Shown: positions 25,299 to 44,357 of the stretch, one piece after another | How positions within the stretch are numbered: position 1 is the first letter of the stretch | How the letters are laid out: each line of letters begins with the position of its first letter | NCBI GenBank assembly: GCA_963677925.2 | Contig: CAXXYH010000003.1 | Coordinates: 1,568,001 to 1,632,000, forward strand | Direction: 5' to 3' | Origin: Spirochaetia bacterium | Lineage (GTDB): Bacteria > Spirochaetota > Spirochaetia > UBA9216 | Length of the DNA: 64,000 bases | Made by a program: the position numbers and the translations under genes | Notes under the pieces: generated by a model | The model's input: only the letters and a program-made list of their open reading frames with translations | Database searches by the model: none | What the model was told of the DNA's origin: nothing

Positions 25299-25491
25299 AT
25301 AGTCCTTCCATCTTCAAAAAGTATCTTGAGAACCTGCTTATATTATATTGCAGTTCAATACTTAAAGTCAAAATTTTAAGAGATGCTGAAATCAGGAATA
25401 TTCAGGCTCTTCAGAGCTACTTCCGTTTTCCTATGAATACTGTAAAAATAAAAGAGAGTTAAACTAAAGTTTATACACGAGCGGTCATATT

Positions 25492-25840: not shown

Positions 25841-26698
25841 CTACTGAATATTCCTGCCATTGAGATAACTCATCCAGTAGAAGAAGGCTACAAATACCCC
25901 GCCGCCAATGATATTTCCAAGCGTTACCGGAATAAGATTGCTTAAAAAGAAACTCTTCCAGCCAAGCACTGACAGAGCTTCAGCAGTCAGACCGTGCGCC
26001 GCAGCAGCACTCATCATTGCTTCACTTCCCTTAGCGATTATTCCAGCCGGAATATAATACATGTTCGCTATGCTGTGCTCAAAGCCCGAGGTTATAAACA
26101 GCCATATCGGAAAAAATATTGCAAAGATTTTTCCGGTTATATCCTTTGCTCCCCAGGCCATCCATACTGCAAGGCAGACCAGCCAGTTGCACATGATGCC
26201 AAGTACAAAAGCCTTCGTAAATGAAAGATTAACCTTGTACAGCGCTATCTTCATCGTGACAACTCCAAGTCCGCCGGCGCTGCTCTCAAACAGTCCGGAG
26301 AGATTCATTAACCAGGCTATAAATACACTGCCTAAAAAGTTTCCGACATACACAAATAACCAGTTCTTAAGCATCTTTGTGACTCTCACCCTCCGCTCAA
26401 GCACCCCTGCAACTATAAGCACGTTCCCGGTAAACAGCTCTCCGCCGGCAATAACTACCAGCATAAGTCCTGTTCCGAAAATCGCTCCGGCCAGCGCTTT
26501 CCCAAGTCCGTATGTATCTGCATTCGCAAATAAGTTGAATGCTGCCACATTGGAACCTTCCGCTGCAAAGGCTATGAAGGCTCCGGCAAGAAATCCCAGC
26601 ATCAGCATTTTCAGAATGCTCAGTTCTGATTTCTTTATTCCGTTATTTACTGTTTCCTCCGCTATCTCAGGCGGTGTCAGAAAGTTTTTATCACCCAA
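25841..26698 (-). CDS. Formate/nitrite transporter (FdhC/FocA family)
   Basis: GGELFTGN, NWLVCLAVW, GFEHSIANMY, VTLGNIIGG. Confidence 0.95.
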   Translation of the reverse strand: MGDKNFLTPPEIAEETVNNGIKKSELSILKMLMLGFLAGAFIAFAAEGSNVAAFNLFANADTYGLGKALAGAIFGTGLMLVVIAGGELFTGNVLIVAGVLERRVRVTKMLKNWLFVYVGNFLGSVFIAWLMNLSGLFESSAGGLGVVTMKIALYKVNLSFTKAFVLGIMCNWLVCLAVWMAWGAKDITGKIFAIFFPIWLFITSGFEHSIANMYYIPAGIIAKGSEAMMSAAAAHGLTAEALSVLGWKSFFLSNLIPVTLGNIIGGGVFVAFFYWMSYLNGRNIQ

Positions 26699-26710
26699 TT
26701 TATTCCCCCT

Positions 26711-27340
26711 TTATGTTTCCAACTGATTTCTGACCTTATGATAAATTGAGTTAGCCAATACAGTTCCTTTTACTTCAATATCTTTCAGTCGTTTTTCAAA
26801 TTTGTATTTAAGCTCTTCGTCCTTCATTATTTTTGTATTTATAAGAACATTAAGACCAGCCCCCTGCAGTGCTGCCTTGCAGAAAAGGGCTCCGGTACCT
26901 GCATCACTTACTGCCAGGCTGCTGCCTTTTTCCGCATACTGCTCAAGCAGCTTCAGGGCTTCAACAGCGCATTGCGCTATTTCCAGCGGGACCTCTGCAG
27001 CAGCTTTAAGTACAGACTGCAGTCTTTCATCTTTCAGCCTTTTCTCATCATCGCTCTGAGACGGCAGGCGGTAGGCTTCTGAAAGCGGTTCAAAGACCTC
27101 GGCATCCCTTTGCACAAGTTTACAGAACCTTTCTGAAAGAGCCTCCGATTCGGTTAACAGTTTTTGTATATCATCCTCAACAGCTGCATACTTTTTCTTG
27201 CCGACTGTAAGATGTCCAACCATACTCCCCAGTGCCGTCCCAAGCGCTCCGGCATAGGCCGAAGCTCCGTCGCCTCCGGGTACCGCAGCCTTTGAGCCAA
27301 GCTCTTTCAGAAAATCTGTGCAGCTGTTATCAAGTATCAC
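26711..27340 (-). CDS. fchA: Cyclodeaminase/methenyl-THF cyclohydrolase (FTCD_C family)
   Basis: SKAAVPGG.GASA, LTVGKKKY, SDAGTGA, NVLINT; sits in the fhs operon. Confidence 0.85.
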   Translation of the reverse strand: MILDNSCTDFLKELGSKAAVPGGDGASAYAGALGTALGSMVGHLTVGKKKYAAVEDDIQKLLTESEALSERFCKLVQRDAEVFEPLSEAYRLPSQSDDEKRLKDERLQSVLKAAAEVPLEIAQCAVEALKLLEQYAEKGSSLAVSDAGTGALFCKAALQGAGLNVLINTKIMKDEELKYKFEKRLKDIEVKGTVLANSIYHKVRNQLET

Positions 27341-28212
27341 AGGCTTACTGCCCCGGCAGATATTTCATTGGATTTCTCACAGGAGACCACTACATGCGAC
27401 AACAGTATTGTCGTTGTTATAAGTCCTACCCCGCCCACGGCCGGAGTGATGAAGCACACTTTCGACGCCGCTTCATCAAAATCCACATCACCGCAGATCC
27501 CCCCATCACCGTCATCGTTTATACCCACATCCACCACTACCGATTCTTCTGTAAAATAACTGCTGTCCATCATCCTTGCACGGCCGGCTGCAGCAACTAC
27601 TATATCGGCTCTTCTGGTAACTGTACTCAGCTCCCAGGTTTTTGAATGGCAGATTGTCACTGTTGCATTTTCATCAAGCATAAGCATCGCAAGAGGTTTT
27701 CCGACAACCGTACTGCGGCCGACAACGGCAACCTCGGCTCCTGCAAGCGGTATTTCATAATGCTTTAACAGCCTTACTACAGCTTCAGGCGTGCAGGGAT
27801 TAAAGCCTTCGTTTCCGCCTCTGAAGACCCTTTCGAGGTTCACCGGATTCATGCAGTCTATATCCTTGCCAGGCAGGATGCTCCGGCATACAAGCTCTTC
27901 ATCTATATGTGAGGGCAGCGGTCGAAACAGCATTATTCCATTTACCAGGCTGTCCCTGTTTGCATGCTGTATATTTTTAATCAGTTCGCCTGTCGTGATG
28001 TCCCTGGATAGAACATCACGGCGGGCAGTTAAGCCAATCAATTCACAATTTTTCAATATACCTTTTTCATACGAAATATCGTCTTCTCTTTCCCCTACCC
28101 TGAGTATCAATATTGAAGGATTGATTCCCCGGTTCTTCAATACACTGATTCTGTTTTTCAGTTCCTCGCGCAAAGAGTCGACTACAGGTTTTCCCTTAAG
28201 TACAGTCCCCAC
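27337..28212 (-). CDS. folD: Methylene-THF dehydrogenase/cyclohydrolase
   Basis: PCTPEAV, VVGRSTVVGKP, ATVTICHS, VDVGIN, GDVD, TPAVGGVG. Confidence 0.92.
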   Translation of the reverse strand: MGTVLKGKPVVDSLREELKNRISVLKNRGINPSILILRVGEREDDISYEKGILKNCELIGLTARRDVLSRDITTGELIKNIQHANRDSLVNGIMLFRPLPSHIDEELVCRSILPGKDIDCMNPVNLERVFRGGNEGFNPCTPEAVVRLLKHYEIPLAGAEVAVVGRSTVVGKPLAMLMLDENATVTICHSKTWELSTVTRRADIVVAAAGRARMMDSSYFTEESVVVDVGINDDGDGGICGDVDFDEAASKVCFITPAVGGVGLITTTILLSHVVVSCEKSNEISAGAVSL

Positions 28213-28222
28213 TATTTTCTCC

Positions 28223-29893
28223 TCAGGATAGTCCTGTTATTTCTCCGTTTGAATCTATATCCATTCCACAGGCTGCAGGTACCCTCGGCAGCCCGGGCAT
28301 GGTCATTATTTCTCCTGTGATTGCAACTATAAAGCCGGCTCCGGCTGATACTCTTATCTCTCTTACCGTTACCCGAAATCCGCGCGGGGCGCCTAAGAGG
28401 GCGGCATTGTCGGAAAAAGAGTACTGGGTCTTCGCCATGCATATGGGCATCTTATCAAGCCCAAGCTTTTCTATGTCGCTTATCTGTTTCTTTGCTGATG
28501 CTGTAAAATCTACCCCATCTGCATGATAGATGGATTTGGCTATCACGCTTATCTTTTCCTCTATGCTGCTTTCACTATCATAAAGCGTATGGAAATCGGC
28601 TTTTCCGCTTTCACATATTTCAACTACTTTTTTTGCAAGCTCTATGCCGCCCTCTCCGCCTTTTGCAAATACTTCAGACAGCACTACTGAAGCTCCAAGA
28701 GCACCGCATCTTTTTTCGATAAGTTTAAGTTCAGCTTCTGTATCTGCGGGAAAGCGGTTTATGGCAACAACTGCCGGAACTCCGAACAGGGCGAGGTTTT
28801 CAAGGTGCTGCTCAAGGTTCACAATTCCGCTTCCAAGCGCTTCGAGATTCTCTGCTCCAAGTTCGCTCTTTGCTATGCCTCCGTTCATCTTAAGCGCCTT
28901 TACTGTTGCTACAATTACTACGGCATCGGGTTTAAGACCTGCATACCTGCATTTTATATTGAAGAACTTTTCTGCTCCCAGGTCGGCTCCGAATCCGGCT
29001 TCGGTTACAACATAGTCAGCCAGTTTAAGCGCTGTACGCGTTGCTACTACCGAGTTGCATCCGTGGGCTATGTTTGCAAAGGGCCCGCCGTGGATGAAGG
29101 CCGGAGTATTCTCAATCGTCTGCACAAGGTTGGGTTTTATTGCATCTTTTAAAAGCAGCGTCATTGCACCAGTTGCTCCAAGGTCTCCGGCTGTTACTGC
29201 CTTGCCGCTGTTGTCATAGGCTACTACCATTCTTGATATCCTTGTCTTTAGATCATCAAGACCGGTTGCAAGACAGAGAATCGCCATTATCTCGGAAGCC
29301 ACTGTAATATCAAAACCGTCCTGGCGGGTTACTCCGTCTCCCTTTGCTCCAAGTCCGACAATAATGTTTCTAAGCGCCCGGTCGTTCATATCAACTACAC
29401 GGCGCCATACTATACGCTTGGGGTTTATTCCAAACTCATTTCCCTGCTGCAGGTGGTTGTCTACCATGGCTGCAAGCAGATTATGTGCCGCTGATATTGC
29501 ATGAAAGTCTCCGGTAAAATGCAGGTTGATATCTTCCATCGGTACTACCTGCGCGTACCCGCCTCCAGCTGCTCCGCCTTTTACTCCGAACACAGGCCCC
29601 AGACTGGGCTCCCTCAGCGTTGTCATTGTCTTTTTTCCTATCTTGTTAAGCGCCATGGAAAGTCCTACATTCGTGGTGGTTTTTCCCTCGCCGGCAGGGG
29701 TCGGGTTGATTGCAGTTACCAGTATCAGCTTCGCGTCTTTTTTATTTTCAAGTCTTTTCAGCACATCAAGCGATACCTTCGCCTTGTACTTTCCGTACAT
29801 TTCAAGTTCATCGTCTTCGATTCCAAGCTCAGATGCTAGCTCTGACACCGGTTTCATCTTTGCTTCCTGTGCGATCTGTACATCAGTTTTCAT
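28223..29893 (-). CDS. fhs: Formate--tetrahydrofolate ligase
   Basis: [45 protein letters not shown]. Start moved to the ATG at 29893 (GGAGG RBS), giving 556 aa. Confidence 0.97.
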
Positions 29894-29971
29894 TATGTAA
29901 TTACCTCCTGCAATAATCAGATTCAAGTTAATTATTGTAGAGATTTTAAGGTAAGAGATTTTTCGGGTATA

Positions 29972-29987
29972 TACGCAGAATTATGTA
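29972..29987. promoter_or_regulatory. 7-2-7 operator copy upstream of fhs
   Basis: TACGCAG-AA-TTATGTA; minus-strand -10 TAAAAT at 29948-29943 (23-bp gap). Confidence 0.7.
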
Positions 29988-30040
29988 TTTTAATATATGT
30001 GTATTTTTATAAAAGCTTTGTTTATCATTATTAAATATTA

Positions 30041-31081
30041 TCAGTTATTCATAAGAAAAACTGTGAAAGAGCTGCCTTTCCCCTGGCTGCTTTCAACCTC
30101 AATTCGTCCCTGACAAAGAATCAGAATCCTGTGCACTATGGATAAACCAAGGCCCAGACCGGGCTGCCGGCTGTTTGCTTTGTCCTGAAAATACTTTTCA
30201 AAAATACGAGTTTTCGCTTCTTCATCCATTCCTATACCCTTATCTGTTATTGAAAAAACAATCTCGCCATTCTTGGAGCTGAGAGATATTGATATATTTC
30301 CGCCAGGGCTGGAATATTTAACTGCATTATCCAGCAGATTTATCCAGATATGTTTCATAAGCTCCGGATTTCCGGAATACTTGACCGGACTCAAATCTAC
30401 AGATAATTCGATTTCTTTTTTATTAATCTGAGGCATAAGCAGAATTACAGATTCACGTACCTGTTCATCCAGCTGAAAATAAGTCTGATTCAGGATAATA
30501 TGCTGAGATTCCAGCTTTGTGATGAGCAGAGCATTGTCGGAAAGACTGGCCAGTCTTTTAGATTCGGAAGTTATTATATCAAGATATTTCCACGCTTCTT
30601 CCTCCGGGAGCTCTTCATCCCTCAGAATAGTGGAAAATCCATTAATTGACGTGATCGGGGTTTTAAACTCATGGGAAAAGTGATTAATAAAATCATCTCT
30701 CAGAGTCTGAACACCCTCAAGTTCCGAAGCCATTTTATTAAAATTCCGGAACAGCTCAGACATGGCCCCGGCATCTGATTCATCCAGCCTGACAGAAAAA
30801 TCTCCATCAGCTACTGTTGTAATACCGTTCATCAGCTGGTTGATGTATTTACTGCTGATCTTTATAAAATTATAAGATACCAGCCACATGAATAGACTCA
30901 TGGGGCCAATCATTCCAAGAGCATCGATAGGATCATATTTCCAGTTGTGTTTAATTATGCCGTTTACGAAAAACTCAACCAGTAGGAAAGTCATCACGGA
31001 TATAATTACAATTATCACAGACTGCAGAATCATCCACCTTCTCAAAGGCTTGTTTTTCATGATTTTTGTTTTCTGCTTCAT
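30041..31081 (-). CDS. HAMP-domain sensor histidine kinase
   Basis: 2 TM; SHEFKTPI; NLLDNAVKY; DKGIG; GLGLGL. Confidence 0.93.
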   Translation of the reverse strand: MKQKTKIMKNKPLRRWMILQSVIIVIISVMTFLLVEFFVNGIIKHNWKYDPIDALGMIGPMSLFMWLVSYNFIKISSKYINQLMNGITTVADGDFSVRLDESDAGAMSELFRNFNKMASELEGVQTLRDDFINHFSHEFKTPITSINGFSTILRDEELPEEEAWKYLDIITSESKRLASLSDNALLITKLESQHIILNQTYFQLDEQVRESVILLMPQINKKEIELSVDLSPVKYSGNPELMKHIWINLLDNAVKYSSPGGNISISLSSKNGEIVFSITDKGIGMDEEAKTRIFEKYFQDKANSRQPGLGLGLSIVHRILILCQGRIEVESSQGKGSSFTVFLMNN

Positions 31082-31761
31082 TTACCAACCTCTTCAGTTA
31101 TCTCAGCCTTATAACCTATCCCGCGGACTGCAACAATTTCAATTTCATTAAACATCTTTAATCTGTTTCTAAGTCTGCTTACATGGGTTTTAACAGTGTC
31201 TTCACCGCTTTCGGTAGTAAAACCCCAGATATCATCAAGCAGCTGATTTTTTGTAAAGATCTGCCCCTTGTATGAAAGCAGCTTGAACAGCAGGTCAAAT
31301 TCCTTCTTTGATAATTCAATCTTCTGCTCATTATTTGAAACAGTGTAGGTTGACGAATCTATTACAAGCTCCCCTTCGATAATTTTATTACTTACAGCTA
31401 TATTTGATCGGCGTAGAAGCGCTTTTATCCGCCAGACAAGTTCCTCGGGATCAACAGGTTTTGTCAGAAAATCATCAGTACCCTTTGAAAAACCCGTCCT
31501 TTTTGCATCAAACGACTGATTGGCTGTCAGAATAATAACAGGGAACTGAAACCCGAGCTTTCTGATATTCTGGAGCAGTGTAAAACCGTCCATTACAGGC
31601 ATTTCAATATCAGCAATCAGAAGATCAATCGAACGCGATCGAATTATTTCAAGCGCCTGCGCACCATCCGGTGAGCTTATCACATTAAAATTGGACCTCA
31701 GTTTTCGACTTATCAGAAGCTGAACATTCTCATCATCTTCAGCAAAAAGGATGGTTGCCAT
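31078..31761 (-). CDS. OmpR family response regulator
   Basis: AEDD, DIEMPVMDG, KP, wHTH VKTHVSRLR, RGIGYK. Confidence 0.93.
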   Translation of the reverse strand: MATILFAEDDENVQLLISRKLRSNFNVISSPDGAQALEIIRSRSIDLLIADIEMPVMDGFTLLQNIRKLGFQFPVIILTANQSFDAKRTGFSKGTDDFLTKPVDPEELVWRIKALLRRSNIAVSNKIIEGELVIDSSTYTVSNNEQKIELSKKEFDLLFKLLSYKGQIFTKNQLLDDIWGFTTESGEDTVKTHVSRLRNRLKMFNEIEIVAVRGIGYKAEITEEVGK

Positions 31762-31831
31762 CTTAAAAACTCCGGAGCAAGATTATTATACATAATAGAA
31801 TCTTATCTCCGGAACCACAAGATGACTATTG

Positions 31832-32695
31832 TTATACAGCTACTTTGTTCTTTTTCAATTTCAGGCCATCAACCGAGTTCATTATACCGCCGTGGTTTGC
31901 AGCCATGACTTTACTGATCATAGCGGCAGCCTTCAAGGGAGCTAACCTGTAAAGAATATCCATCATTTTGGCATCGGATCCGACAAGGACCTTGGCCTTG
32001 TTCTTCCCGATTGCACTGATAATAATTGCTGCGGCTTCTTCAGGTTTTGTAAGGGATACCCCCGCCTTTTTCTTGGCTTCCTCGCTTATTTCAGCATTCT
32101 CAAGACCTGAGTTTTTCTTGATATCAGTCTCTATACCGCCCGGTATCACAAGAGATACCCCTATTGCGGTTTTGGAAAGTTCCATCCTCAGAGCCTCTGT
32201 CGCAATCTTTACAGCAGCCTTTGATGCCCCGTAGACGGCCTGCCCTGGAACAGGAAGAAATCCGCCCATGCTTGAAACATTCGCGATATGGCCTTCAGGT
32301 CTTTCTGCTATATATGGGAGAAATGCCCTGACCATATTCATCATTCCGTAAAAATTAATATTTAACTGCCGTTCTATCTGGGAATCCTCAATGTCTGCAA
32401 GGGTCATAAAGGGCTGAATTATTCCGGCATTATTAATCAGACCATCAATTTGACCGTGAACTTCATTGATTTCAGCGGCAAGATTGCTAACCCTGAACTT
32501 ATCTGTTATATCAGCAGTATGAATTGATACTTTGCCGGAATCAATACCTGCAGCCATTTTGGTTTGTTCAAGTGCGTTTCTGTTGATATCAATGGCAGCA
32601 ACCCTTGCGCCCTTTTTAAGCAGCTGAAGAACCAGCTGCCTTCCTACTCCGCCGCCTGCTCCTGTTACTGCTATTACCTTATTATTTAATTTCAT
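31832..32695 (-). CDS. Short-chain dehydrogenase/reductase
   Basis: TGAGGGVG, NNAGI, SSMGG, YGASK. Confidence 0.92.
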   Translation of the reverse strand: MKLNNKVIAVTGAGGGVGRQLVLQLLKKGARVAAIDINRNALEQTKMAAGIDSGKVSIHTADITDKFRVSNLAAEINEVHGQIDGLINNAGIIQPFMTLADIEDSQIERQLNINFYGMMNMVRAFLPYIAERPEGHIANVSSMGGFLPVPGQAVYGASKAAVKIATEALRMELSKTAIGVSLVIPGGIETDIKKNSGLENAEISEEAKKKAGVSLTKPEEAAAIIISAIGKNKAKVLVGSDAKMMDILYRLAPLKAAAMISKVMAANHGGIMNSVDGLKLKKNKVAV

Positions 32696-32864
32696 TGTCG
32701 TACTCCTTTATGCGGCTTACCGCTTAATCTTTGTTACAATGGTAATTTAGAAAAAAAAGGTAACAATAAAGTAAACTTTTGATTTTTTTTAAAGTTTTTT
32801 TAAAATCTTGAGATTTGATATCAGACTTTCAATTTAATATAATTCGGATATACAAGGAGTAAAA

Positions 32865-33992
32865 TTGACGGAAGTCTGGCTTAAAACTATTATCAATATA
32901 ATCTGCTCTCAATTTGCAGTCCTTATGTTTGCAAAAATAGAGAACAAAAAAGAGAATAATCACCATGATTACAGATTATTCAAGATAATGCTTCTCACAA
33001 TCATAGTCCTGCTGCTCCTCCATTCTCTGACTTTATTTACCAACGGTTCAAAAGAAGCCCCTGGGAAAATAATCCTGCAGGCATCTGTTTTCCTGCTCTT
33101 TCCGGCAGCAGGCTTTCTTGCCATGATCTATGCGATATATATGGAAAAAATCATAAAAACAGTTAAACGACGTTTCAGATACTGGCTATTTCTCTATACC
33201 ATTCCTTTAATTATTATCACAGGCCTCTGCGTTGCCTCCGAATTTACCCACTGGTTTTTCACCTTTGATGATGAGGGTTATTTCCATCAGGGGCGTTTTT
33301 TCTATATACCGATAATCATCTCATTCGGATACGTAATCACTGCACTGTTCAGGGTTATATCGCAAAGAAAAAATATGAATATCAGGGAATATTCAGACCT
33401 GGTCGCAATGCCTGTTCCAATGATTGTGACAGGAACACTGCAGAGTTTTTTTCCTGAATTTCCAATTCTACTCCCGGGATGCGTGCTGACACTTTTTCTT
33501 GTATTTTCAATCATACAGGATAGACGGCTTTCCTTTGATCATCTGACAGGTGCATACAACAGACAGAAACTGGATGAATACCTGGAGTTGATGTCTGGAA
33601 ACTCCACAGCATCAGGAAAAAACTTTGCGGCTATGCTTGCGGATGTAAATAAATTCAAGTTTATCAATGATACCTATGGGCACCTACAGGGAGATCTTGC
33701 CCTTATTGAGGTAGTAAAAACCATTAGAAGCGGTATAAGGAATATTGATTTCCTGGCCAGGTATGCAGGTGATGAATTTGTTGTAATATTTCCTGACTGC
33801 AATGAACAACAGCTCAATTCGATTATTTCTAGAATAAATCAGAATTTCAGTCTGATTGCCGCAAAAAATACAAAATACAAACTATCCATAAGCATCGGTG
33901 CAGATGTATATAATCATGAAGTTTTTAAGAATCCGGAGCATTTCATAGAACATCTTGATGCACTGATGTATAAATCCAAACATAAAAACTGA
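32865..33992 (+). CDS. Membrane-anchored diguanylate cyclase-like protein (AGDEF)
   Basis: Multi-TM N-terminus; DHLTGAYNR, FKFINDTYGHLQGD, ARYAGDEF. Confidence 0.88.
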   Translation: MTEVWLKTIINIICSQFAVLMFAKIENKKENNHHDYRLFKIMLLTIIVLLLLHSLTLFTNGSKEAPGKIILQASVFLLFPAAGFLAMIYAIYMEKIIKTVKRRFRYWLFLYTIPLIIITGLCVASEFTHWFFTFDDEGYFHQGRFFYIPIIISFGYVITALFRVISQRKNMNIREYSDLVAMPVPMIVTGTLQSFFPEFPILLPGCVLTLFLVFSIIQDRRLSFDHLTGAYNRQKLDEYLELMSGNSTASGKNFAAMLADVNKFKFINDTYGHLQGDLALIEVVKTIRSGIRNIDFLARYAGDEFVVIFPDCNEQQLNSIISRINQNFSLIAAKNTKYKLSISIGADVYNHEVFKNPEHFIEHLDALMYKSKHKN

Positions 33993-34100
33993 AACTTGAG
34001 AGTAAATACTCAATTTTTTTTCTCACACCGAAAAACAGACGATATACTTAGAACTGATTATTTTTGGAAGAAAATATAAATGTCGCGGAAAGCAGAAAGA

Positions 34101-34132
34101 TGGCATCATAATTCTATAGAATTATGATGCCA
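34101..34132. repeat. Perfect 32-bp palindrome between convergent genes (probable terminator)
   Basis: tggcatcataattcta|tagaattatgatgcca, no spacer. Confidence 0.75.
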
Positions 34133-34157
34133 AAAAAATAGATTGGAGTTAAAACCG

Positions 34158-34838: not shown

Positions 34839-34854
34839 TAGTTTATCCTATTAA

Positions 34855-35388: not shown

Positions 35389-35451
35389 GTTTAATCTCCT
35401 ATGATGTATTAATTTATTGATTCTACACTCAAGAAAATAAACCGGTGATAT

Positions 35452-35479
35452 TTATGATTTACTTATGAAATATTGCTGA
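35452..35479. promoter_or_regulatory. 11-bp-period direct repeats (OmpR-type site)
   Basis: TTATGA (35452), TTATGA (35463), TGCTGA (35474) upstream of the 35388 gene, next to an OmpR pair. Confidence 0.45.
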
Positions 35480-35499
35480 AATGTTAAACTTTAAATTTT

Positions 35500-37235: not shown

Positions 37236-37366
37236 AAGATGCTCCTTATAATAACTAAAGAATGACTTGTTATAATAAATCTATTTGCTGATTAAATTCT
37301 ATTCGACAGAAAGGATATTTTTTATATATTTCCGTAATAATTCTGAAATGTTTCTGTTTTGTTAAT

Positions 37367-37397
37367 AAAAAAGGCAGATCAATCAACCGGATCTGCC
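37367..37397 (-). terminator. Rho-independent terminator after the SDR
   Basis: ggcagatc-N9-gatctgcc followed by TTTTTT on the minus strand. Confidence 0.75.
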
Positions 37398-37415
37398 AGA
37401 ATTTATATTTATATT

Positions 37416-38309
37416 TTACTTTTGAATCATCAGTCGTGTTCCGCCGTCAACTACAACAACTTCTCCGTCCATGAACGAGGTTACACCTGTACACATCATG
37501 TAAACAACACGGGCTACATCATCAGGATCTGCAACAGGAGCTTTAACCGCCTGTGTCCTTTTTTCCTTCGCTGAATCTGTAGCGTCCATATTCATTGCTC
37601 CAGTTGTAAGCATTCCAGCCGGTGCCACACAGTTGACAGTAATGCCTGCAGGTTTTAATTCACGGGCTAAAGACTGAGAAATACCGACAACCCCGGACTT
37701 GGCTGCTACATAAGGAGAGAGGCATCCGGCGGAAGATTCCATTGAAATTCCGGCTACTGATGCAACATTAACAATATGGCCGCCTGTACCCTGTTTTATC
37801 ATTTGCCTCGCAGCCGCCTGATCAAAGAAAAAGGTTCCTTTTAAACCGGTATCCACGACTAGATCATAATCTTCTTCATCAATATCAACAAATTCTTCCA
37901 TCCTCCAGTGAGCAGCATTACTCACCAGAATATCAAGCTTTCCGAACTCTTTTACTGTAAAATCAACTGCTTCATTTATCTGTTTAACATCCCGGACATC
38001 TGCCTTAAAGAATTTCACATCAAAGCCCTTTCCGGAAAAAAACTCTATGGCAATCTCTGCATATTCTTTTGCAATATCAACTATCATGACCTTTGCACCG
38101 GCTTCACACAGTCTGTTGACAATACAGGCGCCCAGCCCCATTGCGCCTCCTGTGACCACCGCGACCTTCCCGCTCAGGCTTAAAATTTCTGCCATAGGGA
38201 CAGCATTTGCCAGTCCGGCCATTTTTATTCCCGGAGCGGCTTCCATTCCCCTCACATCCACACCAAGCAGACGTTTAAAACCTTCATGAAATTTGTCCAA
38301 TTCCTTCAT
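37416..38309 (-). CDS. Short-chain dehydrogenase/reductase with N-terminal extension
   Basis: TGGAMGLG, SNAA, ASVAG, YVAAK, VDGG. Confidence 0.9.
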   Translation of the reverse strand: MKELDKFHEGFKRLLGVDVRGMEAAPGIKMAGLANAVPMAEILSLSGKVAVVTGGAMGLGACIVNRLCEAGAKVMIVDIAKEYAEIAIEFFSGKGFDVKFFKADVRDVKQINEAVDFTVKEFGKLDILVSNAAHWRMEEFVDIDEEDYDLVVDTGLKGTFFFDQAAARQMIKQGTGGHIVNVASVAGISMESSAGCLSPYVAAKSGVVGISQSLARELKPAGITVNCVAPAGMLTTGAMNMDATDSAKEKRTQAVKAPVADPDDVARVVYMMCTGVTSFMDGEVVVVDGGTRLMIQK

Positions 38310-38367
38310 TAAATTCTCCTGTCTATTTTATTTTGAAATTATAGGGTTATGAATTCTTAACTTGAAA

Positions 38368-38383
38368 TACATAAATTTATGCA
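38368..38383. promoter_or_regulatory. 7-2-7 operator copy upstream of the SDR
   Basis: TACATAA-AT-TTATGCA; -10 TATAAT at 38343-38338 (24-bp gap). Confidence 0.8.
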
Positions 38384-38409
38384 TTAAAACTTTTTATTAA
38401 TCTGATAAC

Positions 38410-38449
38410 AAAAACAGCCGGCTGCATAATTTTACAGTCGGCTATTTTT
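38410..38449 (-). terminator. Terminator after the PanB-like gene
   Basis: aaaaacagccggctg-N10-cagtcggctattttt hairpin with A/T tails. Confidence 0.7.
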
Positions 38450-38490
38450 AACTCTTCTGATGTATAATGAATTATTATTCTTATATCTTA

Positions 38491-39378
38491 TTATACTTTT
38501 TCTATTGCATTCAAAAATTTCTCCAGCTCTCTATCTTCCATATGAAATCCATGCTTATCTTCAGGATACGCTCCTGTTCGTACATCATTAGCCCATGCAC
38601 CATATGCAGTTGCTGCCCATTTGAAAAAGTCTCCATAAACCTTTGCATGTGAAGCGAGTGACGGCATCATATTAAAAGTATCAAAATCGACCATCTCGCA
38701 GCCATCTGCAGCTCCGCCTGCTGCGATTGAAATCACAGGAACTCTCAGCTTTTTTGCTATGGCATTAGTTACTTCTATGGGGGTTAATTCTATTGTCATA
38801 GCCATCATTCCATTCTCCTGATATTCATAAGCCATTCTGAAAACTTCCATAGCTTCTTCAGCGGTCTTACCCATTCTTTTATATCCACCGTGTCTGCTTG
38901 TCTGCCATCCGGATAAAGCTCCTACATGACCAAAAACAACCAGGTGGTTGTCTGCCATATATTTAAGTGTATCGTTATTTATTCCCATTGGAAGTAATGA
39001 GTCTGCACCTTCGGCCATATACATTGCACCATATTCAAGAGCCTTTTCTTTTGATGAAAAAGTAGGAGTCTGCATATAAAAATTAATATGAATAAATTTG
39101 GCTGCATTTCTTACAGTTCTAATCCACCATGGTGCGTTTGCTATAGACATAAGTGTATTTTCTGCGGGAACCGTCAAACGGCATATATCACAGCCCGCCA
39201 TTTCTGCCGCCATTGTAAAGTACTGATCGCGGTTGGCAGGGCACATCTGCACTATTGGAGTTCCTTCATCTTTACATTTCTGAAGATATGCAATTGATTT
39301 TCGGCCTTTCTGCATCAGCGAAGCTTTAACTTTTTTATCTTCCTTATTTATTTCGACTTCCTTCTTTTCCTCTGCCAT
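38491..39378 (-). CDS. Divergent PanB-fold (ketopantoate hydroxymethyltransferase-like) protein
   Basis: GHVG, GGYKRMGKT, IELTP, VPVISIAAG..ADG, DVRTGAYP match PanB; the GDS and K.EG metal/substrate motifs are absent. Confidence 0.75.
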   Translation of the reverse strand: MAEEKKEVEINKEDKKVKASLMQKGRKSIAYLQKCKDEGTPIVQMCPANRDQYFTMAAEMAGCDICRLTVPAENTLMSIANAPWWIRTVRNAAKFIHINFYMQTPTFSSKEKALEYGAMYMAEGADSLLPMGINNDTLKYMADNHLVVFGHVGALSGWQTSRHGGYKRMGKTAEEAMEVFRMAYEYQENGMMAMTIELTPIEVTNAIAKKLRVPVISIAAGGAADGCEMVDFDTFNMMPSLASHAKVYGDFFKWAATAYGAWANDVRTGAYPEDKHGFHMEDRELEKFLNAIEKV

Positions 39379-39462
39379 AACAGCTCTCCTTATAATCCAA
39401 AGATTAATATCTTAAATTCGTTAAACCGAATGGTTAACCTGAAAATTTTTATCATTCAGCAT

Positions 39463-39969
39463 TTACTTATAGACAGCGTTTGAACAGATTAAATCAATTG
39501 CTTTTCTTATTTGAAGATCATTTTTTATTGGAGTCAGCTCCTTACCCATAAAATCTATGACCATTTCTAAACTAATATTCTGCCTATGTGCTATCCGGCA
39601 GGCTTCATCTAAAAGTTCAGATTCCGCTGCAAAAATTTTTTCACTTGAAATAATTCCCTGCAGCAGAATTTCTGTTTTTACAGTTTTATAAGCCTCATTT
39701 CTGAATTCTTCTTCTTTTTCATTCCAATCGTAATTTAAAAAATCTTCATTTATTTCATAAGACATACTCTGATATCTCATTCTGCATTTAGCTTCGGTCA
39801 AAATAGTCTGGAATTCTTCCGCCACTGTCTCAGCAGGAACATCAAAATCGTTAGCCTCAAGAACAAGATCAATCAGAATTCCCTGAAGTCTTCTGTCGGT
39901 CTTAGCTGACTCGCAGTTAATGTTCAAGTGCCTGGCATCTACACCCAGATAATTTTTAACAGTTGCCAT
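39463..39969 (-). CDS. Trigger-factor C-terminal-domain-only chaperone-like protein
   Basis: NDFDVPAETV, EAYKTVKTEILLQGI, KAIDLI resemble the TF C-domain; no ribosome-binding or FKBP domain. ATG at 39969 with GGAG RBS. Confidence 0.65.
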   Translation of the reverse strand: MATVKNYLGVDARHLNINCESAKTDRRLQGILIDLVLEANDFDVPAETVAEEFQTILTEAKCRMRYQSMSYEINEDFLNYDWNEKEEEFRNEAYKTVKTEILLQGIISSEKIFAAESELLDEACRIAHRQNISLEMVIDFMGKELTPIKNDLQIRKAIDLICSNAVYK

Positions 39970-40028
39970 CTTCCAGTCTCCGTGCACAAGTTACAGGAAA
40001 TGATAACTCCGGCATGAGCTGACGTAAA

Positions 40029-40044
40029 TACATAGATTTATGCA
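40029..40044. promoter_or_regulatory. 7-2-7 operator copy upstream of the TF-like/PanB-like genes
   Basis: TACATAG-AT-TTATGCA; -10 TATCAT at 40005-40000 (23-bp gap). Confidence 0.8.
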
Positions 40045-40089
40045 ATTATTTGCATCATTTGAGAAATGATTTAAATTGTAAAATATAAT

Positions 40090-40872
40090 TTATATTTCTG
40101 GAGAAATTCCGTAGCGAATCAATTTCAGAATAAGCTCCTGTCTTGAAGACACTTTAAGCTTAAGATGAATATTGGCAATGTGCCTATAGATTGTCGAGAC
40201 ACTTATAAAAAAGCGATCACTTATCTGGCCCGGAGACAAGCCTTCGCAGATAAGTCTTGCGATCTCTCTTTCCCTTTTTGAAAGTATACCTTCAAGCTCT
40301 TCAACCTTATTCTCATTATGAACTGAGAGCATCACATGCATATTTCTGAAAAGATTTTCCAGGTGTGGATATACAGCCTTCATAATACCGATTTCAGTTT
40401 TGTTAAAACTACAGCGGCCCACACGATCCAGGGCAAATACGCACCTTACAAAATCATCATTTGCATGCAGGGTAAACCCTGCACTGTATGAGATTCCCTG
40501 TGGTTTAATATAATCTTTTAAAAACTCATCTTCATAATGACTCGTCCAGTCTTTAATTCCGACATCAAAGTTTTTTTTATAATCAGCAATATTATCTTTG
40601 ATTTTCAAAACTGAATATTTTCCATTTTCAACTTTTGAATAATAATCAAGATAGGCATCTGTCCATTGTTTATCTGCCCCTATCTGGCAGACATCCTGAA
40701 TATTTCCATTGACGTTTAAAAAAAATATTCTGGCCTGTTCAAAAGGAACAAGTTCATAAATGTTTTCGATAGATTTATTTATAAAGGCTTTAGGTTCTCT
40801 TTCATTACCTGTTTTAAGGAGATAATTGCTAATACTGGCCCAGGGTAATTCTTCTGAATATTTATGTACCAT
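40090..40872 (-). CDS. LuxR-family regulator (GAF/autoinducer-like N-domain + HTH), paralogue 1
   Basis: LSKREREIARLICEGLS..QIS..FFISVSTIYRHIANI.LKL.VSSR. Confidence 0.9.
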   Translation of the reverse strand: MVHKYSEELPWASISNYLLKTGNEREPKAFINKSIENIYELVPFEQARIFFLNVNGNIQDVCQIGADKQWTDAYLDYYSKVENGKYSVLKIKDNIADYKKNFDVGIKDWTSHYEDEFLKDYIKPQGISYSAGFTLHANDDFVRCVFALDRVGRCSFNKTEIGIMKAVYPHLENLFRNMHVMLSVHNENKVEELEGILSKREREIARLICEGLSPGQISDRFFISVSTIYRHIANIHLKLKVSSRQELILKLIRYGISPEI

Positions 40873-40971
40873 AAATAAATCTCTTTTCTTTATGAAGCCT
40901 GAAAGTACCGTACAACAAGTAAATAATAAATGCCTTACCGCTTATTATATATTATTTATGCCGACAGTATA

Positions 40972-40987
40972 TACATAATTTTATGTA
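40972..40987. promoter_or_regulatory. 7-2-7 operator copy upstream of LuxR paralogue 1
   Basis: TACATAA-TT-TTATGTA (perfect arms, flanked by gacagta...tactgtc); -10 TATAAT at 40949-40944 (22-bp gap). Confidence 0.82.
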
Positions 40988-41021
40988 GTACTGTCTTAAA
41001 AACGTAAAGTTAGGCCAATTT

Positions 41022-41051
41022 AAAAGGCAGATAAGTAAATATCCGCCTTTT
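41022..41051 (-). terminator. Terminator after the 407-aa gene
   Basis: aaaaggcggata-N6-tatctgcctttt on the minus strand. Confidence 0.7.
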
Positions 41052-41067
41052 AACAATTTCTGCATTT

Positions 41068-42291
41068 TCAGCAGAATTTATCAATCTTTTTTGAAATTAT
41101 AAGACGTATAGTATCTTCCGGAACATTTTCAAACTCTCTCCAGACCGACCATCTTGCTCCAATCAGAGTTTTACTCATTCCATACCACATTGATAGATAA
41201 GCAGGAACCATAAGAGGATAACGCCGTTCCAGAGCGGCCTGCTTAAATTCGTATATAACTTCATTTTCGTTAAAATTAATAATTGAATATTCTATCAATA
41301 AAACCTGAAGTATTACTTCAATAAATCCACCAAGAACCCGGCCGTCATTAACATCATTTGGAACGCCCAGCCAGTCCCGAAGTCCTTTTATGGCAAAGAA
41401 TTCCCCGAACATCGTCTTGCCTGTAGCCTCAAACATACATCTGATCATATGCTCAACACTTTGCGGGTCTAATTCACCAGAGGCAATCTTTACATTTAAA
41501 ACATTTATCACGTATGAAGCTCCCAGAGGGTGAACAAGTGTTGATCCGTAACACTGCGCCGCTGTTAGTTCGCCTGTTAATCCGTTACTGAATTTGTAGC
41601 CGCATTCCTCTCTAAGCTGCATAGGTTCCACAACCATCTGCTCTTCAGGAGTGAATTTTATCTGGTCATCAGTTGCTATTGGTCCGAACTTTTCCCAGAC
41701 CTGCTTTTCCGGCATAGGAAATTTTGTACGATCTTCAGCTATAACCCTGCAATGAAGATCACCGCATCCGATAGCTTCTACCATATTATATTCAGTGTCT
41801 GGGCCGAAGGCTTCACCGACACCCTGCAGGGATGCCGTAGTTGCACGGCAGAATTCCGATCCCAGAATATCCCAGGGGCAGACATCAAGCTCCTTTTCTA
41901 CTCTGTACTGTCCGAAATCATTCACTCTGCCAGGCATACACTGCCGATCATCCCCGGCATCTCCCATGACACCGCCAATATACCCTCCCTGCATAAAAGG
42001 GTGTATACAGTAATTATCAATATTCATCTGCTTGACTATCGGCATTGAAAACATACCTGCCATTGCCTTTCTATTAACCTCACAAAGCAATGAAGCCCTT
42101 TCTTTATAATCAGGTATCAATATACGTAAAGCCTGAATAAAAACCGTATCAATAACCGGGATATGCCGGCATAAATAGTGATATGCATCATGGAAAGAAA
42201 TCAATTTCTCCCATGGGGTTTTTATTGCAGGGTGTTCAGGAAGAGCCCCCTTACCAACTTCTCTTGGTATATGTGTACTATATTTACTCAT
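41068..42291 (-). CDS. Uncharacterised Cys-motif protein, V4R/ATC-hydrolase-like metal site
   Basis: ELDVCPW..GSEFC...VEAIGCGDLHCRV resembles the CP..C..GD..C signature of V4R-type domains; RBS AGGAG. Confidence 0.55.
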   Translation of the reverse strand: MSKYSTHIPREVGKGALPEHPAIKTPWEKLISFHDAYHYLCRHIPVIDTVFIQALRILIPDYKERASLLCEVNRKAMAGMFSMPIVKQMNIDNYCIHPFMQGGYIGGVMGDAGDDRQCMPGRVNDFGQYRVEKELDVCPWDILGSEFCRATTASLQGVGEAFGPDTEYNMVEAIGCGDLHCRVIAEDRTKFPMPEKQVWEKFGPIATDDQIKFTPEEQMVVEPMQLREECGYKFSNGLTGELTAAQCYGSTLVHPLGASYVINVLNVKIASGELDPQSVEHMIRCMFEATGKTMFGEFFAIKGLRDWLGVPNDVNDGRVLGGFIEVILQVLLIEYSIINFNENEVIYEFKQAALERRYPLMVPAYLSMWYGMSKTLIGARWSVWREFENVPEDTIRLIISKKIDKFC

Positions 42292-42321
42292 CTTATTTCT
42301 CCTAACTGATATATAACCGAC

Positions 42322-43338
42322 TTAATAAAAGACTTTTTCGGTGACTAAAGCTTCAAATCCGTTCATTTTTACTTTATCCCCGATATTTACTTTTCCTTTA
42401 TCAAGTAATGCATAACCGATATTCTTGTTTATCATGTAAGAATAACTGACTTTTTTTACTATCCCTACTTTTTGATCATCAAGAAAAACTTCTGCCGGAA
42501 CGTTTCCTATACTGCTGTTCGGAATATGGATATCATCTTCATCAACCGTAAAACCGAACATTTGCCTTTTTGGTCCTTCTTCCTTAATTTTAGCAAGGGC
42601 AGCTTTCCCAATAAAATTCTTGTTCCAGTCGATGGATCGTTCAAATCCAACCTCAAGCGGGTTTGTTCCTTTAAGATCAGCCATAAGATAAAGCCCTTTT
42701 TCAGTGGACAGCGTCCAGGCAAGCACCTGAAACTCTGTAATATGAACAGCTCCGAAAGCAGTTCCGGCTTCGGATAGTTTTTCTGCAATCACCGGAGTGT
42801 TTTCGGGATCAGAATAAATTTCATAACCGATTTTTTCGCCTGCAAAGCCGGCTCTGGCTATTTTAACAGGTATACCATCAAAACTGTTATCTGCAATAGT
42901 GAAGAATTTCATGTCGTCAATTGGTTTTGCAAGTAAAACATTTAACAAATCTTTTGATCTGGGGCCCTGAACAGAATGCATATCCCATTTCGGGGTTACA
43001 TCAGCATATTCTACTTTTAATCCTTCTTTGTGAGCATCGAACCAGTCTGTCAGTCTTTTTTTAAACAGCGTAGATATCCAGAATTTTTGCTGCTCGATCC
43101 GGAAGATAACAACATCATCAATAATTATACCTTCATCATTAAGCGCTGTTGTATACCTTGCACATCCTGTTTTTAAAGATGAAATGTTATTCACGTAAAT
43201 TTTATCAAGAAACGATACAGAATCTTCGCCAGTTACTTCTATCAGATAATGCGTGAAGTAGTACCATCCGACAGTCTTTCGAACAGCTTCGTGCTGTTCT
43301 CTTTTCATTTCATCATCTTTATAAACGTTCTTAAACAT
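42322..43338 (-). CDS. GcvT-family THF-dependent aminomethyltransferase/demethylase-like protein
   Basis: QHEAVRK, G.IIDDVVIFR, VQGPRS, RAGFAGE..GYEIY, NFIGKAAL; no GcvP or GcvH in the window. Confidence 0.88.
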   Translation of the reverse strand: MFKNVYKDDEMKREQHEAVRKTVGWYYFTHYLIEVTGEDSVSFLDKIYVNNISSLKTGCARYTTALNDEGIIIDDVVIFRIEQQKFWISTLFKKRLTDWFDAHKEGLKVEYADVTPKWDMHSVQGPRSKDLLNVLLAKPIDDMKFFTIADNSFDGIPVKIARAGFAGEKIGYEIYSDPENTPVIAEKLSEAGTAFGAVHITEFQVLAWTLSTEKGLYLMADLKGTNPLEVGFERSIDWNKNFIGKAALAKIKEEGPKRQMFGFTVDEDDIHIPNSSIGNVPAEVFLDDQKVGIVKKVSYSYMINKNIGYALLDKGKVNIGDKVKMNGFEALVTEKVFY

Positions 43339-43393
43339 ATAGACCGCTCCTTTCGGGGATTACGGCGATTTTACCTTTCTGCCTTTTAGACAT
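43331..43393 (-). CDS. Putative 20-aa leader ORF overlapping the GcvT-like start
   Basis: GGGAGG RBS, then ATG 43393: MSKRQKGKIAVIPERSGLYV*. Confidence 0.35.
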   Translation of the reverse strand: MSKRQKGKIAVIPERSGLYV

Positions 43394-43470
43394 AAATCTT
43401 CCTCCCTATAATACAACATTCAGTGAATTGCTTATTTATTCAGGCTAAACCCACTGGATTTATTCATAAA

Positions 43471-43486
43471 TACACTATTTTATGTA
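43471..43486. promoter_or_regulatory. 7-2-7 operator copy upstream of the GcvT-like operon
   Basis: TACACTA-TT-TTATGTA; candidate -10 TAGCCT at 43447-43442 (23-bp gap). Confidence 0.72.
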
Positions 43487-43533
43487 TTTGAAAATGCAGG
43501 AAGAGATGAGGTTAATTGTATTGATTTTATTTA

Positions 43534-44316
43534 TCAGTTAGCAGGAATTATTCCAAAACTATATAATTTGATAATTAGCTCCTGTCTGCTGCAGACATTT
43601 AATTTCTGGTAGATATTGGCAATATGCCTGTAAACGGTTGAAATACTTATAAAGAGTTTTTTGCTGATCTGATCCGGATTTAAACCCTCACAAATATGAC
43701 GGGAAATTTCACGCTCGCGGACTGATAGAATATCATCAAGCTTTTCAATATTTTTTTCATTATTTTTTAATAATGTAATATGTAAATTCCTAAACAGATT
43801 TTCCAGATGGAGCAGTATGATTTTCATGATAGCCTGTTCCCTCTTCGAATAACCTCTTTTACTGACTCTATCCAGGGCAAAAACACATTTAACAAAATCA
43901 TCGTATGCATGAATTGTAAATATAGCACTGTAGTTAATCCCCTGCGGTTTTATGTAATCTTTTAGAAATTCATCCTCAGACTGGGCAGTCCAATCAAGAA
44001 CACTGATATCTATATCAGTATAATACTTTGAATAATCTTTTATTAGATTCCCGATTGAATATTTGCCATTATCCAGTTTGGAATAATATTCAAGATAGAC
44101 ATCTGTCCAGTCCTTTTTTGTACCCATTTGCCAGTAATCGTTAATTTTACCATTGGTATTGAAAAAAAAGATTCGTGCCTGCTCGAATGGAATCAAATCA
44201 GATATATTTTGAATAGACTTATCAATAAAGGCTTCAGGGTCTCTTACACTCCCTGTTTTAAGCAGATAATCATTTATATTATTCCATGGTAATTTTTCAA
44301 CATACTTGGATTCCAT
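43534..44316 (-). CDS. LuxR-family regulator, paralogue 2
   Basis: Same length (260 aa) and collinear with 40090-40872; LSVREREI..ICEGL..ISISTVYRHIANI. Confidence 0.9.
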   Translation of the reverse strand: MESKYVEKLPWNNINDYLLKTGSVRDPEAFIDKSIQNISDLIPFEQARIFFFNTNGKINDYWQMGTKKDWTDVYLEYYSKLDNGKYSIGNLIKDYSKYYTDIDISVLDWTAQSEDEFLKDYIKPQGINYSAIFTIHAYDDFVKCVFALDRVSKRGYSKREQAIMKIILLHLENLFRNLHITLLKNNEKNIEKLDDILSVREREISRHICEGLNPDQISKKLFISISTVYRHIANIYQKLNVCSRQELIIKLYSFGIIPAN

Positions 44317-44357
44317 ATACCCATCTCAATAATTGGTGAAAGAACAGCAATTATTCA

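Follow-up and report, generated by a model that had tools for sequence, protein, structure and literature searches.

A candidate island for folate-dependent C1 transfer with a formate exit in a Spirochaetia bacterium

Within a stretch of 64,000 nucleotides from the genome of a Spirochaetia bacterium (assembly GCA_963677925.2, contig CAXXYH010000003.1, positions 1,568,001 to 1,632,000; hereafter the window, in whose numbering coordinates are given unless a contig or locus is named), an acquired island of 24.9 kb (24156..49043) occupies a position where another genome of the same genus, G401, has only ~780 bp. With about even confidence, this island is considered here as two inducible folate-type modules for the transfer of one-carbon (C1) units, together with their own C1-tetrahydrofolate (C1-THF) operon, a control exerted by LuxR-type receptors through a palindrome, and an exit for formate. 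The two modules are (i) module A, i.e., a GcvT-like protein and a 407-amino acid (aa) protein labelled U407, and (ii) module B, i.e., a short-chain dehydrogenase/reductase (SDR) and a PanB-like protein with chaperones. The folate-dependent C1 chemistry with formate exit is supported by context; what we infer are the association of U407 and the GcvT-like protein in a complex, the class of substrate, a C1 unit at the oxidation level of formaldehyde and a flux in the catabolic direction. Genes were called from a listing of open reading frames (ORFs) combined with Pfam and NCBIfam profiles run on the window proteins; all those named by an earlier interpretation made from the letters of the stretch (hereafter the sequence-only reading) were recovered at their positions, and the genes described below lie on the minus strand unless otherwise indicated.

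In the mechanism proposed, U407 would bind a small hydrophobic or phenolic substrate, from which the GcvT-like protein would shift a C1 unit to THF; in module B, the SDR would oxidise an alcohol to a ketone, after which a retro-aldol cleavage by the PanB-like protein would transfer the adjacent hydroxymethyl group to THF. FolD and FchA would then oxidise the 5,10-methylene-THF so formed to 10-formyl-THF, which Fhs would turn into formate and ATP, the formate leaving the cell through the FNT channel. The analysis points to hydroxymethyl groups labile after SDR oxidation as candidate substrates and, for the GcvT-like pair, to methylenedioxy, aminomethyl or similar groups, while the V4R-like fold predicted for U407 suggests a ligand of hydrophobic or phenolic nature. 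A bolder proposal is made only tentatively, namely that U407 and the GcvT-like protein may form a new two-protein THF-dependent C1 transferase, where U407, as a zinc protein with tandem V4R-like halves, would either hold a phenolic or hydrophobic plant-derived substrate or carry the C1 unit on its conserved terminal Cys as an analogue of the H-protein, and that, together with a chaperone-dependent PanB-like "de-hydroxymethylase", it may provide a corrinoid-independent route to methylene-THF, formate and ATP in anaerobes of the gut, rumen, termites and sediments.

Comparisons with other genomes draw on two sets of loci (labelled L with a number), i.e., (i) the U407 loci, where 80 were kept of the 325 confirmed stretches in species-representative genomes, and (ii) the PanB-like loci, where 80 were kept of 171 confirmed, the metagenome contigs having been scanned with an eight-member alignment. 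Among the 80 PanB-like loci kept, ~40 lie on human-gut contigs nearly identical to one another, and these were treated as one lineage.

The folate-formate operon, its receptors and the palindrome

The operon (25841-29926) is tight, with a gap of 10 bp between Fhs and FolD, an overlap of 4 bp between FolD and FchA, and a gap of 12 bp between FchA and the FNT channel. Fhs, the formate--tetrahydrofolate ligase (28223..29926), scores 933.7 bits with NF010030, above the cut-off of 652, and is 45% identical by tblastn to a housekeeping Fhs at C3:324382-326112, where C3 labels the contig of the source genome (5.04 Mb, 4 contigs) used for the coordinates of housekeeping genes. FolD, the methylene-THF dehydrogenase/cyclohydrolase (27337..28212), possesses both THF_DHG_CYH domains, PF02882 and PF00763, and these Pfam domains, at 188.7 and 94.7 bits, are above their cut-offs; its best NCBIfam model reaches 261.7 against 421, and it shares 36% identity with its housekeeping counterpart. 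The third gene (26711..27340) encodes an FchA-type protein with a methenyl-THF cyclohydrolase/cyclodeaminase domain (PF04961, 213 bits), present as a single copy in the genome (tblastn), for which NF045657 gives 191.6 bits, under the cut-off of 275, and in which sequence does not separate cyclohydrolase from cyclodeaminase activity. The last gene encodes a channel of the FNT formate/nitrite family (25841..26698; PF01226, 273 bits), which is above the cut-off of TIGR00790 (238.1 vs 232.3) and under that of the FocA equivalog (242 vs 290). In the oxidative direction, FolD, FchA and Fhs yield NAD(P)H, ATP at the Fhs step and formate.

Two predicted one-component receptors accompany the modules, namely LuxR1 (40090..40872) and LuxR2 (43534..44316), which are 61% identical to one another (tblastn) and bear a GerE domain (54-58 bits in the two proteins), located in LuxR2 at residues 196-249. 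The predicted model of LuxR1 (pLDDT 74.5) matches CviR, SdiA, RhlR and QscR over their full length (Foldseek E 2e-8), and the putative architecture, i.e., a ligand-binding domain followed by a helix-turn-helix (HTH), fits an operator resembling a lux box. A 19-bp palindrome-like motif, RCATAAWNNTRYGTATWTA in gene orientation, is found upstream of five window genes, each time on the minus strand: at 29968..29986, 42-60 nt upstream of the Fhs start; at 38364..38382, upstream of the SDR; at 40025..40043, upstream of TigC (a chaperone of module B) and the PanB-like gene; at 40968..40986, upstream of LuxR1; and at 43467..43485, upstream of the operon of the GcvT-like protein and U407. These five sites account for five of the nine genome-wide matches at <=1 mismatch. 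When the consensus is built from the four sites other than that of Fhs, 25 matches at <=2 mismatches are obtained genome-wide and the Fhs site is among them; from the 20 non-training hits over 10.1 Mb (both strands), a rough estimate gives ~2e-4 chance hits in the 114-bp Fhs region. Upstream of the genes that lie between the operon and the modules (30041-37235), the palindrome search returned nothing.

Beyond the window, related palindromes occur in all four U407 loci bearing a LuxR-type gene (L004, L011, L053 and L070) and between the LuxR and SDR/PanB-like genes of L095, L097, L099 and L107, and the 12-nt core of the palindrome is met 19 times against 6.25 in shuffles; the exact core was not found in L168. 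The Fhs operon and both modules are probably controlled by LuxR1 and LuxR2 through this candidate 19-bp operator.

Modules A and B and their known relatives

In module A, the GcvT-like protein (338 aa, 42322..43338) matches PF01571 (139.8 vs 25.6) and PF08669 (35.6 vs 25.9) and stays under the cut-offs of the models for the genuine T-protein, i.e., TIGR00528 gcvT (132.6 vs 235.85) and NF001567 (155.7 vs 300), as well as under those of the demethylase equivalogs DmdA (113 vs 410), LigM (57 vs 580), DesA (74 vs 800) and Tdm (NF053776, 114 vs 1100). Its closest solved relatives are T-proteins (1yx2, E 4e-31), and DmdA (E 4e-25), LigM being more distant (E 2e-9). No GCV_H domain is present in the window and neither GcvH nor GcvP lies near the gene, which agrees with its description as an orphan by the sequence-only reading; on the scale of the genome that description does not hold, as a canonical GcvT stands beside the sole GcvH at C3:264506-265941 (GcvH at C3:265585-265941). 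From these scores under the cut-offs and the canonical GcvT-GcvH pair elsewhere, canonical glycine cleavage was ruled out as the function of the GcvT-like protein.

Its partner U407 (41068..42291), separated from it by a gap of 30 bp with a ribosome-binding site, belongs to no Pfam or NCBIfam family; in 19 family members, i.e., U407 and relatives, no Pfam family was retrieved even at E <=10, including PF02830 (V4R). The protein database holds 353 relatives at E <=0.001, and the 325 confirmed stretches in species-representative genomes include several copies in some genomes. The hosts comprise Fusibacter, Sporosalibacterium, Eubacteriaceae, Desulfitobacterium, Mogibacterium, Alkalibacter and Spirochaetales of the termite gut; many are Blautia, further Lachnospiraceae, Oscillospiraceae and Coriobacteriia from the guts of humans and animals. 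The sequence-only reading had proposed to look for co-occurrence of the 407-aa protein with GcvT-like and SDR genes, and this is borne out: a GcvT-like gene lies on the same strand within 400 bp of U407 in 75/80 loci, and an SDR on the same strand within 600 bp in 45/80, or 39 of the 64 loci where both flanks reach at least 1.4 kb. As for the five loci devoid of a GcvT-like gene, three reach a contig edge less than 1.1 kb after U407 (L029, L033 and L054), one ends at ~1.4 kb (L022) and one has full flanks (L030). By crude ORF clustering, a regulator of ~520 aa with a PucR-type HTH is found in 53 U407 loci, an MFS transporter in 13 and a Zn-ADH in 12. Among proteins of 714-2035 aa, no fusion of U407 with GcvT was observed, which is weak evidence.

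The predicted model of U407 (pLDDT 81, pTM 0.83) places in residues 16-200 a fold resembling the V4R phenol-sensor domain of DmpR and PoxR (Z 8.9 and 8.2, ~152 residues, rmsd ~5 A), ahead of Bet3/TRAPP, H-NOX and an archaeal V4R protein in the structural ranking; a second alpha/beta half spans residues 293-403. In a comparison of the U407 family profile with PoxR (5fru; E 0.076), the match lies on a common ExxxGCGxxHCR motif, a region of PoxR-type sensors that we take to be a zinc site. Over 120 homologues, conservation reaches 94-100% at C138, C148, E172, C176, H180 and C181 and 90% for a Cys that ends the protein or adjoins its last residue (C407), and many charged residues are invariant. 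In the ESM Atlas, only unnamed clusters exceed 0.9; V4R and MetOD1 clusters come at 0.84 and are retained as a lead only.

In module B, the PanB-like protein is a TIM-barrel protein of 295 aa (38491..39378), which covers profile positions 2-258 of the 259 of PF02548 at 135.3 bits against a cut-off of 28.7. Aligned to PanB of Escherichia coli, it retains the H136 and E181 positions and has "VPAEN" in place of the "GDS" segment. Pantothenate synthesis was ruled out, as the score of 77.5 bits with TIGR00222 is under the cut-off of 207.55 and a canonical PanB is encoded elsewhere, at C3:327115-327879 (PF02548, 363 bits), adjoining FolD and Fhs. This canonical trio, spanning C3:324382-327879, has the same folate functions as the trio of the island. 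All in all, the Fhs, FolD, GcvT-like and PanB-like proteins of the island are additional to housekeeping copies.

The SDR of module B (SDR297; 37416..38309; adh_short, 162 bits) has as relatives only generic FabG and polyol dehydrogenases, which provide no clue to the substrate. Next to the PanB-like gene lies TigC (39463..39987), a mini chaperone of 174 aa consisting of the Trigger-factor C-domain only (PF05698, 74 bits). The conserved neighbourhood anticipated for the PanB-like protein was recovered too: genes like SDR297 flank it in 50/80 loci, with 60% identity in L162, L164 and L169, and LuxR-type genes neighbour it in 54/80, of which 41 best match LuxR1 and 13 LuxR2. Its further neighbours are a chaperonin of the Cpn60/TCP-1 family (39/80 loci) and TigC (30/80), the latter being also met beside U407 in L011 and L053. 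In the ~40 near-identical human-gut contigs (L113-L151), where the PanB-like protein is 75-76% identical to that of the window, the genes follow the order SDR-PanB-like-LuxR-Cpn60-TigC, and this module seems common in human-gut metagenomes.

Respective to known systems, the logic has precedents, since a C1-removing folate enzyme clustered with genes for C1-THF oxidation is met in LigM-MetF-LigH, the cmu clusters, the sox/dmg clusters and Tdm. In Sphingobium sp. SYK-6, LigM and DesA reportedly work with MetF and the 10-formyl-THF synthetase LigH; LigM and DesA are single proteins of ~460 aa giving 5-methyl-THF, which needs MetF. Module A shares with them the GcvT fold, the C1 unit that would pass from an aromatic compound onto THF and the clustered C1-THF genes including an Fhs homologue, but differs in its 338-aa protein scoring 57-74 bits with the LigM/DesA models instead of 580-800, its V4R-like partner, the SDR that is usually present, the lack of any MetF found nearby and its anaerobic hosts. 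Like Tdm and the dimethylglycine/sarcosine dehydrogenases or oxidases (matches at E 1e-14 to 1e-20), where a C1 unit at the formaldehyde level is trapped on THF by a GcvT-like domain, it would load such a unit, but those enzymes are fused with a DUF1989 metal domain or a flavoprotein, whereas the partner here is separate and of a different fold. The T-protein/H-protein couple of glycine cleavage provides the best sequence match and likewise requires a C1-presenting partner, here U407 instead of a lipoyl protein. To DmpR, PoxR and MopR, U407 bears a moderate likeness in fold over residues 16-200, with the ExxxGCGxxHCR motif at the zinc-site region of PoxR; in contrast with them, it possesses neither an AAA+ nor a DNA-binding part, exhibits the second alpha/beta half and is encoded in an enzyme operon. 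The likeness of the PanB-like protein to PanB is one of family (PF02548) and of the two retained positions, but its neighbours are SDR, LuxR and chaperone genes instead of panC and panD.

As for the operon, fhs, fchA and folD are also found in purine-fermenting clostridia (formimino-/methenyl-THF branch) and in the methyl branch of the Wood-Ljungdahl pathway, and Fhs run in reverse affords substrate-level ATP. The same three enzymes are gathered in one operon, but that of the window ends in a formate channel, is an extra copy carried by an island and has an operator in common with two C1 modules. Anaerobes harvest methyl groups mainly by corrinoid-dependent methyltransferases, whereas folate-only C1 removal (LigM, DmdA, SesA, Tdm) is mostly a matter of aerobes. 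While the logic is known, what is new is the V4R-like partner family without any profile model, the clade of short GcvT-like proteins, that of PanB-like proteins associated with chaperones and devoid of the aligned metal site, the anaerobic and gut distribution, and the ending in a formate channel. If true, compounds from the diet or from plants would be turned over by new enzymes, and formate and ATP in gut and sediment communities would have a source here; the LuxR receptors with their operator give a direct experimental handle on the substrate. The sequence-only reading had recognised no named pathway with this gene set, and likewise no description was found in the full-text literature, subscription-only papers lying outside this scope; PMC13564433 deals with ordinary GcvT and corrinoid O-demethylation.

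Linkage of the parts and competing explanations

In the flanks fetched, Fhs accompanies U407 in 6/80 loci (L003, L004, L015, L027, L062 and L069), distributed among Eubacteriaceae, Spirochaetales, Bacillota, Oscillospiraceae (two) and Coriobacteriaceae, and FchA, FolD and FNT in 3/80, 2/80 and 3/80, respectively; at one or two fhs per genome of ~3 Mb, a rough estimate puts the chance encounter of Fhs far below one in 80 flanks. In L015, the order is SDR-U407-GcvT-MFS-ECF S component-FNT-Fhs-FchA, and in L027 and L069, Fhs-FchA-FolD lies a few kb downstream of the GcvT-like/U407 pair. On the side of module B, Fhs is present in 4/80 PanB-like loci representing three lineages (L111 and L112 counting as one): in L097, FolD-FchA-Fhs is divergent from LuxR-SDR-PanB-like-Cpn60; in L168, a 5-formyl-THF cyclo-ligase, an ECF S component, Fhs (76%), FolD, FchA and FNT (69%) are divergent from a PanB-like gene whose product is 88% identical to that of the window. 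One locus, L011, carries the gene set of the window in another order, i.e., LuxR-SDR-PanB-like(71%)-TigC-U407-GcvT-like-SDR, all in one direction. The ECF S component stands directly upstream of the Fhs operon both in L168 (4513-5812) and in L015 (9670-10221), and together with the 5-formyl-THF cyclo-ligase of L168 it hints that folate uptake and salvage form part of the system. In L003 (Eubacteriaceae bacterium ES2, 3971-8448), Fhs starts at profile position 135, right after an integrase-core (IS-type) gene, and an HxlR-type regulator adjoins the PucR-type one.

A domain of the MTHFR family was absent from the 80 U407 loci, as searched by tblastn with a single query, the MetF-type protein of the genome itself; the sole MTHFR domain of this genome sits in a 665-aa protein, fused to a half that resembles a homocysteine methyltransferase. 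With FolD, FchA and Fhs as the clustered genes and no MTHFR domain found, the data fit a C1 unit carried at the oxidation level of methylene (formaldehyde).

Several observations weigh against the reading of the island as one such system. Firstly, the modules are mostly apart: a PanB-like gene lies within 10 kb of U407 in 3/80 loci (L011, L053 and L070, with up to three copies), and U407 with a GcvT-like gene within 8 kb of the PanB-like gene in 1/80 (L114). One fixed pathway is therefore unsupported, contrary to what the sequence-only reading had envisaged, and modules A and B need not share one substrate. Secondly, Fhs is missing from the flanks fetched for 74/80 U407 loci. The association with fhs and folD that the same reading proposed to look for does recur in unrelated lineages, for module A in L015, L027 and L069 and for module B in L097 and L168. 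Thirdly, the human-gut near-duplicates mean that independent PanB-like lineages are far fewer than the locus counts suggest. Fourthly, D84, K112 and E114 of E. coli PanB, which we take to form the Mg/2-oxoacid site, are replaced by Y101/N99, L129 and M131 in the PanB-like protein; N99 and M131 are invariant in the eight family members, and over its N-terminal third this alignment is uncertain. Chemistry of PanB type is accordingly not assured from the sequence, and, with these aligned residues replaced, a pantoate-like substrate as put forward by the sequence-only reading becomes doubtful. Fifthly, the likeness of U407 to V4R is moderate, as Z values of 8.2-8.9 compare with 7-8 for the typical best hit of models without a clear Foldseek match, as Foldseek itself gives E 3e-3 to 1e-2 and as the profile match is at E 0.076. 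Finally, the GC content of the Fhs operon, 46-47%, departs from the 36-39% of the rest of the island.

The same material allows other explanations. An unlikely one sees module A as a methyl transferase of the DmdA or LigM kind, acting without redox change, by which an O-, S- or N-methyl compound would give 5-methyl-THF to feed acetogenesis or methionine synthesis instead of yielding formate, Fhs, FolD and FchA then serving mainly the PanB-like protein or the C1 balance. It could invoke DmdA and, more distantly, LigM among the solved relatives of the GcvT-like protein, the resemblance of the V4R-like partner to phenol-binding domains and the many hosts among Blautia and other Lachnospiraceae, Eubacteriaceae and termite-gut spirochaetes, groups that include methyl-using acetogens. 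Against it stand the scores with the DmdA, LigM and DesA equivalogs, far under the cut-offs, the adjacent SDR in 45/80 loci, which plain methyl transfer does not need, and the C1 neighbours, which are FolD, FchA and Fhs where there are any, with no MTHFR domain in the 80 loci by the one query used.

Somewhat more improbable is a flux in reverse, where formate would enter through the FNT channel and be converted by Fhs, FchA and FolD to methylene-THF, from which the modules would add the C1 unit to a substrate, either as a hydroxymethylation or as a C1 sink. The steps of Fhs, FolD and PanB are reversible in principle, FNT channels pass formate both ways, and several host groups are formate-consuming gut acetogens. 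However, the loci exhibit ligand-sensing regulators (LuxR- and PucR-type) and importers of the MFS and SSS families, the window holds a chemoreceptor, no biosynthetic genes were found at the loci, and the several paralogues per genome or locus suggest a diversity of substrates typical of catabolism.

Very little probability is granted to module A as a device for formaldehyde capture, in which a conserved thiol of U407, for instance that of the Cys near the C-terminus or one in the Zn-type Cys cluster, would bind formaldehyde and the GcvT-like protein would pass the methylene group to THF, with the SDR and Zn-ADH as alternative oxidising branches. The 90-100% conservation of C138, C148, C176, C181 and C407 in 120 homologues, the withdrawal of C1 units from a sulphur-bound carrier established for T-proteins, the Zn-ADH genes near U407 in 12 loci and the HxlR-type regulator in one would all agree with it; but in the alignment the Cys/Glu/His motif falls on the structural Zn site of PoxR, and regulators of PucR and LuxR type, transporters and a copy number of up to three or more per genome speak for specific substrates sooner than for a general role in detoxification. 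The absence of any functional link, i.e., a mosaic island where an Fhs operon gained by horizontal transfer happens to neighbour accessory genes unrelated to it, is just as improbable. In its favour, ~7.4 kb of unrelated signalling genes and a difference in GC set the operon apart from the modules, and Fhs is missing from the fetched flanks of most related loci; against it, the Fhs promoter bears the same operator motif (chance ~2e-4, rough estimate) and tight clusters recur elsewhere (L015, L027, L069, L097 and L168).

In its core, namely folate-type C1-transfer enzymes with a dedicated FolD/FchA/Fhs set and a formate channel, probably under a common ligand-dependent control, the sequence-only reading is supported by the data. 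The grouping of 25841..44316 made by the sequence-only reading is upheld in so far as the gene pairs recur and the palindrome is shared, but not throughout, since the span also holds the ~7.2 kb of unconserved signalling and unknown genes.

Island boundaries and remaining genes

The synteny of the window DNA with G401:C1, at 85-94% identity, ends at 24155 and restarts at 49044. As such, the Fhs operon, both modules, a chemoreceptor, a symporter and an epimerase-family gene constitute one 24.9-kb indel with respect to G401. The GC content is 35-40% over 30-48 kb of the window and 42-48% in the syntenic DNA past the right boundary; as the GC content is uneven within the island, being higher in the Fhs operon, the island may be a mosaic. 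At its ends, direct repeats resembling attachment sites were looked for and none was seen. The distribution among relatives is narrow: U407 is present in two of 41 genomes, i.e., the source genome and 40 relatives, the second case being a homologue of 32% identity, and a close relative of the PanB-like protein (E <=1e-30) is found in one of 401 genomes of the phylum, namely the source genome itself.

The left edge of the island falls within the gene of a 597-aa HisKA_2/HWE histidine kinase (23505-25298), whose 3' 640 bp (23516-24155) are 94% identical to G401 while the 5' sensor-encoding part is unmatched there; from its sequence, this gene looks chimeric. Next to it, ~1.9 kb of the window (21586-23515), including an ORF on the plus strand (21726-22562), has no DNA match in G401, where the flanks are 129 bp apart.

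Inside the island, the chemoreceptor (44358-45962) carries an MCPsignal domain, in which a stretch of ~105 bp (44800-44908) has at least nine matches in G401 at 81-88% identity and presumably corresponds to the conserved MCP signalling hairpin. It is followed by the gene of a PanF-like sodium:solute symporter with an SSF domain (46021-47700), at 161 bits with TIGR02119 panF against a cut-off of 328. Relatives of the SSS family occur near U407 in only 4/80 loci, and the tie of the chemoreceptor and the symporter to the modules is only putative.

Between the Fhs operon and module B, the intervening genes (30041..37235, ~7.2 kb) comprise two HisKA/OmpR-type pairs, an SDR (31832-32695), a GGDEF protein and two unknowns. 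Their relatives are met in at most 8/80 U407 loci, i.e., they are not conserved with the modules. The two unknowns, adjacent proteins of 226 aa and 177 aa (34158-35388), have no Pfam or NCBIfam match and were not found in related loci. Lastly, the repeat families D1/D2 correspond to three paralogous segments of histidine kinases (22878-22973, 30663-30758 and 36122-36217), two of which lie within two-component systems of the island and one just outside of it.

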